From a virus (taxonomy: Duplodnaviria > Heunggongvirae > Uroviricota > Caudoviricetes): a stretch of 4,002 nt of DNA. Positions 1 through 4,002 of this stretch are shown in pieces. Below the pieces are notes generated by a model that worked only from the letters and a program-made list of their open reading frames with translations, was not told where the DNA came from and searched no databases. Where the stretch lies: IMG/VR virus record IMGVR_UViG_3300029476_000064; one strand, given 5' to 3'. The position numbers and the translations under genes are program-made. The number at the start of each line of letters is the position of its first letter. Position 1 is the first letter of the stretch.

Positions 1-636
1 GTTGCTGACGGGCGACTCGGAAATTTTTGGCGAAGAATCTAGGGCTGGCGCGGTCTGCATGGTGGTGGGCGACTCGGCTTTTTCGGCACCCTGAAGCATG
101 GCGTCGCGGCATCCGTCATACGCTTCTTTCATAGCATCACGCACCCATCCGACAGGTTTCTGCTCAGTCAACTCACACCATTTCTCGAATGTGGGCACAG
201 ATACCGGAACTGGCGGTGCTGCATAAAGCGCCTGACAACTCCAGCCAGACCAGTGAGCACCCTCCGCTCTCTCATCATCTTCAGGGCGAACAAGCGTGAC
301 TTCGCTCGGGTGTTTCCTGTGTGACCACAGCCAGGCTACGGTTTCGGCATTGGCTGGCTCTGGCGGGGCGGAGTAAAAATACTCATCCTCAATCCCATCA
401 ACGGGCTTTGAGAAGCCGATAAAATCACCATAATGCCAAGGATAGGGGCCGTATGGCTCAGAGGTCACACGACGCCACCGGTGAATGGCAGGCTCCGCTT
501 CGAGCGATGCCAGCGCGATACGCAGTGCCGCCAGCGTGTTGCTGTCGCCTTCGTCCAGACCGAACGGGATTTCATCTCTGGCTGCTTCCATGTCGGCAAT
601 TTTCTGCTGCAGCCATTGTTTGGTAATAGTGCTCAT
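1..636 (-). CDS. Hypothetical phage protein, 3' end beyond window (at least 211 aa visible)
   Basis: My own translation of the minus strand is open from 636 down to position 1. ATG at 636..634 is preceded by an AAGGAGAGG Shine-Dalgarno and overlaps the upstream stop (ATGA at 636..633). N-terminus reads MSTITKQWLQQKIADMEAARDEIPFGLDEGDS. Not in the ORF track, presumably because it is incomplete. I do not recognise the family. Confidence 0.55.
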   Translation of the reverse strand, partial: MSTITKQWLQQKIADMEAARDEIPFGLDEGDSNTLAALRIALASLEAEPAIHRWRRVTSEPYGPYPWHYGDFIGFSKPVDGIEDEYFYSAPPEPANAETVAWLWSHRKHPSEVTLVRPEDDERAEGAHWSGWSCQALYAAPPVPVSVPTFEKWCELTEQKPVGWVRDAMKEAYDGCRDAMLQGAEKAESPTTMQTAPALDSSPKISESPVSN

Positions 637-902
637 GATGCCTCTCCTTTACCGGATGCGGCGGCGATCAGCTTCTGCGCCTGCTGAATGTCAGGATTGC
701 CTGCAATCATCACTTCTGGCGCGTCACAGTCACCGCCAAGGTCAAGAATGCGCTCATGTCCGGTACGCAGGCAGGATTTGTATCCTGAAACCGTCTGCTT
801 GAGCGATTCGGTCAGCACAGCAATCCTCTGGTCTTTGGCTTCCAGCTCATCCAGCAGCGCCAGCACTGTGGCTGGGTTGGCTGCGGAGTTCAGCGCGTTC
901 AA
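633..902 (-). CDS. C-terminal segment of a small hypothetical protein; 89 codons from TTG at 902, probably the downstream part of a gene interrupted by an in-frame TGA
   Basis: ORF track entry starts at a TTG with no Shine-Dalgarno upstream. It is in the same frame as the 38-codon ORF at 930..1046, separated only by a TGA at 932..930 and nine sense codons. Stop at 635..633 overlaps the next ATG. Confidence 0.4.
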   Translation of the reverse strand: MNALNSAANPATVLALLDELEAKDQRIAVLTESLKQTVSGYKSCLRTGHERILDLGGDCDAPEVMIAGNPDIQQAQKLIAAASGKGEAS

Positions 903-929
903 GGCAGTGATATCTGCATCAAGCTGAGT

Positions 930-1046
930 TCATTCTGCCAGTGAGATATCGAAAATGTCATCAGGCGGCATAACACTAAGGCGCTCATGTGCACCAACTG
1001 CTGCCTCAGCGATTTCACGTAATGCGCGTTTGTCGATGTTGCTCAT
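930..1046 (-). CDS. Small ORF, 38 aa (MSNIDKRALREIAEAAVGAHERLSVMPPDDIFDISLAE); likely N-terminal part of the interrupted gene continuing to 633
   Basis: ATG at 1046..1044 with GGAGGA about 7 nt upstream; ATGA overlap with the stop of the 76-aa ORF. Ends at TGA 932..930. Below the ORF-track length cutoff; translated by hand. Confidence 0.4.
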   Translation of the reverse strand: MSNIDKRALREIAEAAVGAHERLSVMPPDDIFDISLAE

Positions 1047-1273
1047 TCTTCATCCTCCAACTCAGATACGGCGTCCATTACATCTGAGCCGCGAATGGTT
1101 TCGAATGCCACACAAGCCATTTCAAAGCACAGGCGCTCATGCGGGTGCGGAGATTGCCAATACTTGAAGCCAGGACGATGCGAATAGCCCTGCATCGCAT
1201 AAAACTCTCCGGCCAATTCAATGGCGGCATCCACCAGTTCACGGTTTGTCATTGGTTTGTCGATGTTGCTCAT
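1043..1273 (-). CDS. Small acidic hypothetical protein, 76 aa
   Basis: ORF track. ATG at 1273..1271 with AGGAGG 7 nt upstream; ATGA overlap with the upstream stop. Begins MSNIDK and carries an acidic C-terminal tail (SELEDEE). I do not recognise the family. Confidence 0.55.
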   Translation of the reverse strand: MSNIDKPMTNRELVDAAIELAGEFYAMQGYSHRPGFKYWQSPHPHERLCFEMACVAFETIRGSDVMDAVSELEDEE

Positions 1274-1470
1274 TGGGCGGCCTCCTGGATTAACTTTTCG
1301 AGAATGGCATCAAGGGCTTTCCGTTTTCCGATATACCCGCCACCAACCCACTCTCCACGAAGCAAGGCGTAATATTTCCCGTCGTCTTCGTGATACGGTC
1401 CTCGGATAGACCAGTCGGTTGTGATGGCGTCGATAGCCTTTTTAGTTTCTGCGAAATCCATCATGCTCAT
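1270..1470 (-). CDS. Small hypothetical protein, 66 aa (MSMMDFAETKKAIDAITTDW...)
   Basis: Internal ATG of the 85-aa track ORF at 1470..1468, preceded by GGGGGAGGG and forming an ATGA overlap with the ren stop. The longer start at 1527 would overlap ren by 60 nt and is less likely. Confidence 0.5.
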   Translation of the reverse strand: MSMMDFAETKKAIDAITTDWSIRGPYHEDDGKYYALLRGEWVGGGYIGKRKALDAILEKLIQEAAQ

Positions 1471-1760
1471 ACCCCTACCCTCCCCCAAACCATCAACACC
1501 CGCTTCATCGCGGCACTCTGGCGACACTCCTTAAAAATCAGGTTAGTGCTCACCTTTCCTTCCCGTTCTTCCCTGGTAGCGAATCTGTAATACACCGTTC
1601 GCCAGACCTTACCATCAATGACCAAGATTCCTGCCCGCGCCATTTTAGCCGCAGCCTGATTTATGCTGGTTACTGTTGCGCCTGTTACCGCGGCAACGTC
1701 CTGCGCACAGAAGCTCTTATGCGTCCCCAGGTAATAAATAATTGCCTCTTTGCCCGTCAT
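1467..1760 (-). CDS. ren: Ren protein (Rex-exclusion resistance), lambda-like
   Basis: The 97-aa translation (MTGKEAIIYYLGTHKSFCAQDVAAVTGATVTSINQAAAKMARAG...) closely matches lambda Ren as I recall it. Position directly after P with an ATGA overlap, as in lambda. AAGGAG Shine-Dalgarno upstream. Confidence 0.85.
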   Translation of the reverse strand: MTGKEAIIYYLGTHKSFCAQDVAAVTGATVTSINQAAAKMARAGILVIDGKVWRTVYYRFATREEREGKVSTNLIFKECRQSAAMKRVLMVWGRVGV

Positions 1761-2448
1761 ACACTTGCTCCTTTCAGTCCGAACTTAGCTTTGATTTCTG
1801 CGATCTTCGCCAAAGCCTGTGCACGATTTAAAGGTCTACCGCCCATGACAGGAAGTTGTTTTACTGGTTCAGGTATCGCCTCACCACGGTTAATTCGCGC
1901 GGTCATACAGGTCAGCTCATCGGCAGCTTTACGCCGTAATTCCGCGTCAGTCAGCGCATTGGCCCGCATGTTCTGGTACAGGTTGGTAACCAACCAGTAG
2001 TGCGCGTTTGATTTCCATGGATAAGACTCTGCGTCCGGATACAGGCCACGCTTCCGGCAATACTCGTAAACCATATCAACCAGCTCGCTGACGTTTGGCA
2101 GTCCGGNNNNNNNNNNNNNNNNNNNNNNNNNNNNNNNNNNNNNNNNNNNNNNNNNNNNNNNNNNNNNNNNNNNNNNNNNNNNNNNNNNNNNNNNNNNNNT
2201 TCCATCGTGGTGATCCCGTTTTCCCGAAAAGCCAGAACCCACTGGCGACGGATTTCGTTCACTTCGTTCTGGTCACGGTTAGCCAGGCTCGCCGGGAAAG
2301 TTGCCAGTAACTGGCTGAACACACCGTTGATGATCTGCGCTACCTGCTGTACCTGCGGCTTTTCGTCGTACTGTTCCGGCATGTTGTTGGCGATCCGACG
2401 CATCTGCTCACGGTCAAAGTTAACCATCTGTGCGGCGATGTTTTTCAT
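1757..2448 (-). CDS. P: Replication protein P (DnaB helicase loader), lambda-like; coding sequence interrupted by an N run at 2107..2199
   Basis: N-terminal track ORF (MKNIAAQMVNFDREQMRRIANNMPEQYDEKPQVQQVAQIING...ITTME) and C-terminal track ORF (GLPNVSELVDMVYEYCRKRGLYPDAESYPWKSNAHYWLV...GLKGASV) both match lambda P as recalled. The two track ORFs are in different frames because of the N run. ATG at 2448..2446 overlaps the O stop. Confidence 0.85.
2107..2199. other. Run of 93 N (gap or masked sequence) inside the P gene
   Basis: Seen directly in the sequence. The flanking P reading frames are out of phase across it, so 93 is probably not the true length. Confidence 0.95.
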
Positions 2449-3374
2449 AGATCCACCCCGTAAATCCAGTCTGTGTTTGTCAGGTCGAGTTTTGGTTTGC
2501 TGGCTGTCACGCCTGCCTGTTGCTTGTTACGGTTGATTTCGAGTTGGGTCCACTTATCGCGGAGTTTGGCCGGACTTAGCACGTTACCGGACCAGAAGTT
2601 GTCCTGGCATGCCCAGCGGAACAGCACGCACATGTCGCGGTGGTTACGTCCGTCACGTTCACGCATCAGGCGGATATCGTTAGCCCACCCTGCAAAATTC
2701 GGTTTTCTGGCTGATGGCGCGATGGTCTTCACCATGTCAAACATCCACTCTGCGGCGGTCAGGTCTTCTGCTGTCCCCCACCTGCTGCCGCTCTGAATTG
2801 CAACATCTGGTTTCTCCACAGGAAGATCGTTTTCTGGTTGGTCAGAGGATTCGCCAGAATTCTCGGACGAAAAAGGTTTTATATTGTCTTTTGTTAGTTT
2901 GTCTTTTGTGTTTACCTGATTCGGGTAAACGCCTTTACCTGATTTGGGTAAACTTTTCTTACCTGATTCAGGTAAATTTACCTCTTTCAGGTAAACTTTA
3001 TTTTTCTTACCTGATTCGGGTAATGTTGACCATTCACTGACCACATTATTAATGCCGATATTCCGCCCGCTCTGAATAAAAATCCCACGCTTTACCAGAA
3101 CACTTTTTGCAGCAGAACACTTGTGCGGCAATATCCCGGTCAACTCGGAAAGTTGCTCGTTGCTCACCCAATCCAGTTTTTTATTAAAGCCATATGTTTT
3201 GCGCATGACAGCCAGGAAGACCAGAAGCTGGTGCTGTGTTAATCCGGCCAGCATCACAGCTTCCAGCAACTCATTTGCAATGCGCGTATAACCATCATCG
3301 AGATCTGCCACATTACGCTCCTGTTTGGCAAAGTTACCTCTGCAGAAGTTGAGTATTTTTGCTGTATTTGTCAT
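2445..3374 (-). CDS. O: Replication initiator protein O, lambda-like C-terminal domain with a divergent N-terminal iteron-binding domain
   Basis: The 309-aa track ORF has a first ~27 aa and a C-terminal ~125 aa (SRWGTAEDLTAAEWMFDMVKTIAPSARKPNFAGWANDIRLMRERDGRNHRDMCVLFRWACQDNFW...TNTDWIYGVDL) that match lambda O as recalled. The middle differs. AGGAG Shine-Dalgarno upstream; origin iterons lie inside the gene. Confidence 0.9.
   Translation of the reverse strand: MTNTAKILNFCRGNFAKQERNVADLDDGYTRIANELLEAVMLAGLTQHQLLVFLAVMRKTYGFNKKLDWVSNEQLSELTGILPHKCSAAKSVLVKRGIFIQSGRNIGINNVVSEWSTLPESGKKNKVYLKEVNLPESGKKSLPKSGKGVYPNQVNTKDKLTKDNIKPFSSENSGESSDQPENDLPVEKPDVAIQSGSRWGTAEDLTAAEWMFDMVKTIAPSARKPNFAGWANDIRLMRERDGRNHRDMCVLFRWACQDNFWSGNVLSPAKLRDKWTQLEINRNKQQAGVTASKPKLDLTNTDWIYGVDL
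2875..2911. other. AT-rich region next to the iterons (candidate DNA-unwinding element of the origin)
   Basis: The stretch GGTTTTATATTGTCTTTTGTTAGTTTGTCTTTTGTGTTT is strongly AT-rich and lies immediately promoter-distal to the iterons, as in lambda ori. Confidence 0.5.
2912..3023. repeat. Replication origin iterons: five copies of a 17-bp dyad-symmetric repeat TTACC-N7-GGTAA inside the O gene
   Basis: Copies at 2912-2928, 2935-2951, 2959-2975, 2978-2994 (variant TTACCTCTTTCAGGTAA) and 3007-3023. They sit in the O linker region, the same place lambda carries ori, but the repeat sequence differs from the lambda iteron. Confidence 0.8.
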
Positions 3375-3377
3375 AAT
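3349..3377 (+). promoter_or_regulatory. pO-like promoter for oop RNA (-35 TTGAGT, 17-bp spacer, -10 CATAAT)
   Basis: TTGAGT at 3349-3354 and CATAAT at 3372-3377 on the plus strand. The flanking sequence is near-identical to the lambda pO/oop region as I recall it. Confidence 0.6.
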
Positions 3378-3384
3378 GACTCCT

Positions 3385-3462
3385 GTGGATTGATCCAGTA
3401 ATGACCTCAGAATTCCATCTGGATTTGTTCAGAACGCTCGGTTGCCGCCGGGCGTTTTTTAT
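3385..3462 (+). ncRNA. oop: oop antisense RNA, about 77 nt, overlapping the 3' end of cII on the opposite strand
   Basis: Sequence GTGGATTGATCCAGTAATGACCTCAGAATTCCATCTGGATTTGTTCAGAACGCTCGGTTGCCGCCGGGCGTTTTTTATT is near-identical to lambda oop as recalled. It has an internal ATCCAG/CTGGAT stem and ends at an intrinsic terminator. Confidence 0.7.
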
Positions 3463-3703
3463 TGGTGAGTCCATCAAGCGCATACTTAAAAGCCCTGCTA
3501 ATCGGACTGATGTCTGATGCCATTCCGAAAGCACACAAGACCGAAGCAATAAATCTCCAGTCCGTTCTGCTTATCTTCGATTCATGACAGCCAATCATCT
3601 TTGCCAGACCGCGCTGGGTAATAGCTGACAGATTGATAAGTAAATCTGTTTCTGCGCGATCAACGTCACGCTGTGATAGTTTGCTGTAACTTGTTCTTTC
3701 CAT
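3407..3703 (-). CDS. cII: Transcriptional activator CII; C-terminus identical to lambda CII, N-terminal part divergent
   Basis: The 98-aa track ORF ends ...LTNKKRPAATERSEQIQMEF, which matches the lambda CII C-terminus as recalled. The N-terminal region has the SKISR helix-turn-helix-like motif but differs from lambda. Position between the cro-like gene and O, with the 3' end overlapped by oop. Confidence 0.85.
   Translation of the reverse strand: MERTSYSKLSQRDVDRAETDLLINLSAITQRGLAKMIGCHESKISRTDWRFIASVLCAFGMASDISPISRAFKYALDGLTNKKRPAATERSEQIQMEF
3436..3460 (+). terminator. Intrinsic terminator of oop (lambda tO-like)
   Basis: Stem GCTCGG (3436-3441) pairs with CCGGGC (3448-3453) with one G-U, loop TTGCCG, followed by a T6 run at 3455-3460. 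Confidence 0.75.
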
Positions 3704-3788
3704 TTCTTAAGATTTCCAATAGTGAATAGTTAGTTGAAAGGTATGCGTGGAAACGCATATGGCCTTAGTTGGTCAGATATCTTGGAAC

Positions 3789-3834
3789 TCGCTTTTCAGC
3801 GACGTAGGACGAATGTCCGTTGTTACAAAGAGCG
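3789..3834 (-). promoter_or_regulatory. Candidate nutR-like antitermination site: boxA-like CGCTCTTTG plus boxB-like hairpin TCGCT-GAAA-AGCGA
   Basis: On the minus strand, CGCTCTTTGTAACAA (plus 3834-3820) resembles boxA (CGCTCTTA in lambda, TGCTCTTTAACAA in rrn). Downstream, TCGCTGAAAAGCGA (plus 3802-3789) is a 5-bp stem with a GAAA-type loop like lambda boxB. Location between the cro-like gene and cII matches lambda nutR. The boxA-to-boxB spacer is longer than in lambda. Confidence 0.4.
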
Positions 3835-3844
3835 GATCCGCTTA

Positions 3845-4002
3845 TTAAGCGGCTTTGTGTTCCGGCGGGAACACGTCATCAAGACTGACTTTTGCGCCTA
3901 ACTTGTTTAGGCACGCAACAAGAGCACGGCATGTTTTAAGGTCTGGGAAGCGACGACCAGATTCCCAATGTCCGATAGCTCCCTGTGTGCATCCAACTGC
4001 CT
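3845..4002 (-). CDS. Cro-like HTH (XRE-family) regulator, 5' end beyond window; 51 C-terminal codons visible
   Basis: My own minus-strand translation from 4000 gives AVGCTQGAIGHWESGRRFPDLKTCRALVACLNKLGAKVSLDDVFPPEHKAA, ending at TAA 3847..3845. The pattern matches the recognition helix and following helix of XRE-type HTH proteins. Same strand as, and immediately upstream of, cII, which is the cro position. Confidence 0.55.
   Translation of the reverse strand, partial: AVGCTQGAIGHWESGRRFPDLKTCRALVACLNKLGAKVSLDDVFPPEHKAA

Follow-up and report, generated by a model that had tools for sequence, protein, structure and literature searches.

An in-frame TGA codon in a lambdoid prophage sequence raises the question of whether the two stretches of open reading frame on either side of it are one gene or two, and whether the stop itself is real. 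The window, by which we mean the whole stretch of 4,002 nucleotides analyzed here (IMG/VR record IMGVR_UViG_3300029476_000064, Caudoviricetes), contains this codon at positions 932 to 930 on the minus strand, with 38 codons before it and 98 sense codons after it in the same frame. The first-pass annotation, made from the letters of the DNA, had proposed a single gene broken by a nonsense change, and had also considered a sequencing error and, as less likely, programmed readthrough. We compared the locus with its relatives in complete genomes, viral contigs, and metagenomes, and searched it for signals of translation, recoding, and transcription. Taken together, the region from 1046 to 633 on the minus strand is very probably one ead/Ea22-like gene that was inactivated by a single nonsense change.

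Genomic context of the interrupted gene

The window comes from a lambdoid E. coli prophage. On the minus strand, the gene order is cII (3703-3407), an O-like replication gene (3374-2445), the gene for replication protein P, ren, two small hypothetical genes, ead, and one more hypothetical gene, beginning at ATG 636. The P gene is interrupted by a run of 93 N (2107-2199). This run makes the P frame appear as two ORFs, and since SF-468 has 103 nt in its place, the mask is 10 nt short. A mosaic junction lies at about position 3311, inside the O-like replication gene. Positions 1 to 3311 share 100% identity with the prophages of SF-468, MS15052, 10035004-3, and UID2404240036, in which a YdaT-domain gene lies upstream, and positions 3312 to 4002, on the cII side, match other prophages at about 96.5%.

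The interrupted gene overlaps both of its neighbors. Upstream, a 76-amino-acid hypothetical gene (WP_000065088.1; 1273-1043, minus strand) ends in a TGA that overlaps the ATG of ead in the sequence ATGA. Downstream, a second ATGA (636-633) joins the natural stop of ead (635-633) to the ATG of the next gene (636-634), a hypothetical gene that runs from 636 to position 1, where it leaves the window, and that encodes 268 amino acids in SF-468. This next gene has its own Shine-Dalgarno sequence (AAAGGAGAGG, -8.7 kcal/mol).

Short identical stretches were seen at both ends of ead. The 76-amino-acid gene (1273-1255) and ead (1046-1028) have the same first 19 nt on the minus strand (ATGAGCAACATCGACAAAC, encoding MSNIDK), and the two proteins are otherwise unrelated. 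Phage relatives begin with ATGAGCAACATCGACAAAC too, and this common start may be a short linker shared in module shuffling. At the other end, ead genes with unrelated C-terminal halves end alike in GGTAAAGGAGAG (...GKGE; window positions 650-636, minus strand; columns 495 to 503 of alignment A1), which doubles as the Shine-Dalgarno sequence of the next gene. From its recurrence in the alignment, this 3' end looks like a conserved module junction.

A single domain spans the reading frame on both sides of the stop

The ead/Ea22-like gene occupies positions 1046 to 633 on the minus strand and consists of 137 codons and a stop, with the premature TGA (932-930) as codon 39. It is preceded by the Shine-Dalgarno sequence GGAGGA (1058-1053), whose duplex with the anti-Shine-Dalgarno sequence scored -9.3 kcal/mol, comparable with those of neighboring genes and in agreement with the good ribosome-binding site that had been noticed for this ORF. 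The residual translated part, from ATG 1046-1044 to position 933, encodes the 38 residues MSNIDKRALREIAEAAVGAHERLSVMPPDDIFDISLAE. Past the stop, the 98 sense codons that are now untranslated (929-636) form an open frame longer than expected by chance, since only 1.1% of the stop-to-stop intervals in 300 shuffles of the window had at least 98 sense codons.

The downstream half had been described as having neither an ATG nor a Shine-Dalgarno sequence. The first part of this needs correcting, as ATG 710 is in frame past the TGA together with TTG 902, GTG 866, GTG 818, and GTG 713. The second part stands: when all in-frame ATG, GTG, and TTG codons of the downstream half were scored against the anti-Shine-Dalgarno sequence, none had a convincing Shine-Dalgarno sequence. 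TTG 902 scored +0.4 kcal/mol, and an independent start for the downstream half was dropped with a best score of -5.8 kcal/mol (GTG 818).

Both halves match the Pfam family Ead_Ea22 (PF13935), and they do so in order, which agrees with the original description of one 137-codon frame cut into 38 and 98 codons at 932-930. The intact allele scores 83.1 bits (E = 3.7e-23) over profile positions 1 to 113, where the gathering cutoff is 27 bits. Scored separately, the 38-residue piece from the window reaches 34.5 bits (profile positions 1 to 36) and the 98-residue piece 46.2 bits (profile positions 57 to 113), the latter being followed by the variable C terminus. The break falls inside one Pfam domain that spans both halves. 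Alignment with relatives gave the same layout for Ead/Ea22 proteins generally, namely a conserved N-terminal module (MSxIxxxALRE...P.TVLALLDE) and divergent C termini, and alleles with the common N-terminal 49-mer range from 114 to 234 amino acids. An NCBIfam scan with the intact protein and its neighbors found no family, PHROGs matches were to families of unknown function only, and a PDB sequence search with the intact protein found no related solved structure.

The same interrupted interval has been annotated before. A megablast search with 561 nt around the site matched 25 E. coli records over the full length at an identity of at least 98%. In six fetched genomes (S51, SF-468, KKa014, fS54a, 2018-06-4CC, and EH08-18-36), PGAP annotates the identical 414-nt interval as an "ead/Ea22-like family protein" pseudogene with an "internal stop." Elsewhere the same interval is intact and encodes 137 amino acids (WP_029488729.1, WP_000065101.1, and WP_227474763.1), with the gene order ren, hypothetical, hypothetical, ead, hypothetical unchanged. 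RefSeq thus already records the internal-stop pseudogene in identical DNA, and we regard it as an ordinary nonsense pseudogene.

Relationship to phage ead genes and lambda Ea22

Relatives of the window's gene were also found in phages. In mEp043 and mEp213 (where the product is annotated as "EaD protein"), Louie, and CurroJimenez_Bas106, almost all of the N-terminal ~70 residues agree with those of the window's gene, the DNA being about 93% identical for the first ~210 to 235 nt, and these genes also end in ...GKGE. Their C-terminal halves, however, are unrelated to that of the window's gene, so that the relationship is mosaic. The location differs as well: the phage ead genes lie in the early-left "ea" region beside abc2, DUF2737, or EaA, whereas the window's gene lies in the nin region after ren.

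Three further observations concern ead genes outside the window. Phage mEp043 has two adjacent ead/Ea22-like genes. The metagenome contig L063 contains the conserved 49-mer twice (1759-1807 and 2283-2331), 524 nt apart, which suggests tandem ead paralogs. In Salmonella phage L (MW013502.1; L024:401-922), an ead-like reading frame runs uninterrupted for 173 codons from MSNIDKRALREV, of which MW013502.1 annotates only the last 109 ("orf109 of ST64T"); judging from the open frame, the start was probably mis-called in that record.

Another bearer of the family name is lambda Ea22, which we liken to the window's gene by its shared Pfam family name and by its published description. Published accounts (PMC10834534, PMC7093339) give that protein a short domain at the N terminus, a coiled coil, and a variable domain at the C terminus. 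Ea22 is pro-lysogenic in lambda and Phi24B, and tetramer formation has been described for the lambda protein (PMC7093339, PMC10834534). Lambda ea22 lies in the exo-xis region of the early-left operon, whereas the window's gene is downstream of O, P, and ren, and because of this nin-region location we regard it as a member of the family and not as a positional ortholog of lambda ea22. The pro-lysogenic function of the lambda and Phi24B proteins cannot be transferred to this distant paralog.

Codon 39 is a glycine codon in intact alleles

In the DNA alignment, codon 39 is GGA (Gly) in every intact close relative, including those of G1/2, 23AR0885, WEM25, and the phages Louie and mEp043. As read from this alignment, the event is a G-to-T transversion at window position 932 on the coding strand (C to A on the plus strand), which turned GGA for Gly39 into TGA. 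The first-pass annotation had proposed aligning homologous prophage loci to look for a sense codon at this position, which is indeed what intact copies have, and had named Trp as an example, which is not the residue found. A TGG-to-TGA origin is ruled out by the GGA in all close relatives.

The intact alleles are otherwise nearly indistinguishable from the allele in the window. The DNA of WP_000065101.1 and WP_029488729.1, both from E. coli prophages and both with 137 codons, is the same but for one or two bases; these alleles have GGA where the window's gene has TGA, and the latter gene can yield no more than its first 38 residues. Base 932 is the sole difference between the window's gene and the ead of LR-62-2, and the remaining intact alleles each have one further substitution. 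Seven more distant relatives, at 30 to 64% protein identity, have G, L, or K at the aligned position and never a stop, in ORFs that are continuous (the distant relatives compared include PhiR41_1, phiv205-1, P13374, and Klebsiella phage F14). The tblastn matches in 57 phage records likewise run as single pieces across the position of the stop. Homologs consistently split into two genes, with a conserved stop, would have spoken for separate genes, but no examined homolog is split there. One gene broken by a nonsense change, as originally proposed, is supported by the intact 137-amino-acid alleles with a sense codon, by the single domain, and by the internal-stop annotation in RefSeq.

Distribution of the stop allele

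In order to count alleles, a 61-mer centered on the site was searched in both allelic forms in 5,426 complete E. coli genomes. These mirror-image searches found T in 11 records (10 genomes) and G in 48 records, and no record had a base other than T or G. The T allele is present in 10 of the 56 E. coli genomes that have the site (about 18% of carriers) and in 10 of the 24 that have this version of the gene. For IMG/VR, metagenomes, and the GTDB species representatives, the query was an exact 49-mer in which the site was N. IMG/VR viral contigs gave 5 T and 26 G (5/31), the metagenome matches 1 T and 29 G (1/30), and the GTDB representatives no T and 1 G, with neither A nor C seen at the site in any of these 49-mer matches. 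The T allele is real and heritable, and its fetched carriers originated in Switzerland (from poultry meat), the USA (from blood), and Japan (from river water), and also in Malawi, Viet Nam, and Laos.

The one GTDB match lies in a genome that by name is not an Escherichia, the chromosome of Apirhabdus apintestini CA-0114 (CP138906.1; L027:3476-3692). Its copy of the N-terminal module is 93% identical and carries the GGA allele.

Origin and recombination of the stop allele

Among all genes recovered, T was found only in the 137-codon version of ead, whereas G alleles with the same N-terminal module have 114 to 234 codons and a wide variety of C-terminal modules. A single step separates the T haplotype from an intact one, T is confined to one haplotype family, and the pattern is consistent with a single origin of the T allele. 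A sub-lineage formed by 2018-06-4CC and EH08-18-36 has adjacent changes in codons 110 and 111 (Pro to Pro and Glu to Lys) that were not found in any G allele. These two adjacent changes are the only ones past the stop among the T alleles, and they are too few to show a relaxation of constraint there.

When T carriers were compared over the 3.3 kb that they share, the differences lay almost entirely in the O and P genes (above window position 1670), and the segment from ren to ead was nearly invariant. The concentration of differences in O and P points to recombination around one original allele. T alleles also adjoin differing downstream modules, with S51 and L030 diverging at window position 290, and the left-hand module beside the T allele is of another kind in the window itself (cII type, beyond 3311). 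The simplest reading of these haplotypes would be that T arose once and that its flanks then recombined. From this we infer that T-carrying phages or prophages are still transmissible and that ead is dispensable.

Several other lesions have been collected at this locus in other strains. The start codon of ead is changed from ATG to ATA in QEC11-421 and in the IMG/VR contig L033 (homologous to window position 1044), and 23AR0885 has a 6-bp tandem duplication of CTTGAC within ead (homologous to about 747). In the upstream 76-amino-acid gene, the G1/2 group has a +1 T frameshift (homologous to about 1117), and LR-62-2 and SCU-104 have an 11-bp deletion (homologous to 1251-1261). Such independent lesions suggest weak constraint on the accessory genes of this region. 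An ead with the ATG-to-ATA change is still annotated as intact by RefSeq.

One observation counts against reading the T allele as a plain pseudogene, namely that it is common for a null, being found in several recombinant backgrounds and on several continents. With such a frequency, the allele may have been under selection, whether for the loss of ead or for a promoter-like site that the same base creates.

The same base completes a candidate promoter

A consensus scan identified a sigma-70 promoter-like match on the sense strand at 961 to 932, the sole site on that strand between positions 500 and 1400. This candidate consists of ATGACA (961-956), an 18-nt spacer ending in TGg, and CAGAAT (937-932). 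The mutated base is the final T (position 6) of the -10 hexamer, and the TG of an extended -10 element is present. In the intact allele, which has CAGAAG, the same scan found no sigma-70-like site. By the same criteria, such a site is created by 6 of the 1233 substitutions possible in the intact gene and by 1 of the 40 possible nonsense substitutions, which is the one observed.

The SNP may have been kept for a putative sigma-70-type promoter, which would lie in an operon that repression normally silences in the lysogen. The nin-region genes downstream would then be transcribed from it in the prophage state, ead being lost only incidentally, and a fairly frequent allele in several recombinant backgrounds is in keeping with this. 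However, the observation was made post hoc, and the match is weak, agreeing with the consensus at 9 of 12 positions with an 18-nt spacer and without T at position 1 of the -10 hexamer. Comparable matches occur in shuffled sequence at about 0.7 per 900 bp, which is about chance density. No benefit can be named for such a transcript, as the downstream genes are without known function, and the frequency is accounted for just as well by hitchhiking with a successful prophage. We therefore consider selection for a promoter to be improbable. The same small probability attaches to the proposal that the G-to-T change both truncates ead and completes a candidate extended -10 promoter, which would give a repressor-independent nin-region transcript in lysogens.

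Recoding, separate genes, and sequencing error

Programmed recoding, in which the UGA would be read as selenocysteine or by efficient readthrough so that full-length protein is the main product, is less probable still and can be given very little credence. The frame is open for 98 codons past the stop, and the base that follows the stop is A, a relatively weak termination context in E. coli. Against this, the stop is limited to one derived haplotype family, with GGA in the 48 E. coli records, 26 viral contigs, and 29 metagenome matches counted above, and the ancestral codon specifies glycine and not Cys or Sec. The 66 nt spanning the UGA have a minimum free energy of -11 kcal/mol against a shuffle mean of -10.35 kcal/mol (z = -0.26), with no SECIS-like hairpin, and the 60 nt that follow the UGA are likewise no more stable than their shuffles. 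An Rfam scan of the whole window by E-value returned only a chance-level match to rliD, away from the UGA. A selenocysteine or readthrough signal was rejected on the folding score, the lack of an Rfam match, and the unconserved stop, and the suggestion of programmed readthrough found no support, as the stop is absent from all other alleles. Background readthrough of stop codons in bacteria is generally 10^-3 to 10^-2 (PMC10057733), so that traces of full-length protein are possible, but these would not amount to a program.

It is hardly credible that a 38-amino-acid gene and an 89-amino-acid gene from TTG 902 exist as two real genes. Mechanical ORF calling does list 633-902 (TTG, 89 amino acids) and 930-1046 (38 amino acids) separately, but a single Pfam domain spans both, TTG 902 is without a Shine-Dalgarno sequence (its score is given above), no homolog is split, and the PGAP annotation has one pseudogene here. 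By analogy with lacI, where restarts follow early nonsense codons, some low-level restarting at TTG 902, 28 nt past the stop, is conceivable, and its product would be a by-product and not that of a gene.

A sequencing or assembly error in the source genome, which a single-base difference from an intact allele might have indicated, is excluded for practical purposes, because the identical T recurs in 10 complete genomes that were sequenced independently and come from varied laboratories, hosts, and countries, in 5 IMG/VR contigs, and in 1 metagenome contig.

Consequences of the truncation

The inactivation of one ead/Ea22-like gene by a nonsense change has several predicted consequences. The G-to-T change at window position 932 turned codon 39 into TGA in the nin-region ead of a lambdoid E. 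coli prophage, and ribosomes starting at ATG 1046 would release a 38-residue N-terminal peptide without the conserved NPxTVLALLDELE segment and without the variable C-terminal part. Since the stop precedes the NPxTVLALLDELE segment, the 38-residue product should be inactive and the gene functionally null. At most, traces of longer products would be expected, either from background readthrough of the UGA or from a restart at TTG 902. Because translation of ead ends early, translational coupling to the next gene is probably lost as well, and that gene keeps its own ribosome-binding site. The 98 codons past it are probably still open only because the mutation is recent. The stop allele appears to have been carried into several recombinant prophage backgrounds, which would fit a dispensable accessory gene.

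As the inactivation of an accessory gene, the change is routine decay in a prophage and matters little. For annotation, it means that the 38- and 89-amino-acid ORFs should not be called as two genes. If the promoter-like site or the loss of ead were in fact under selection, this would explain why T is found in about 18% of carriers and in several backgrounds, and if the candidate promoter were active, it would be a natural promoter born by one mutation inside a silent prophage operon.
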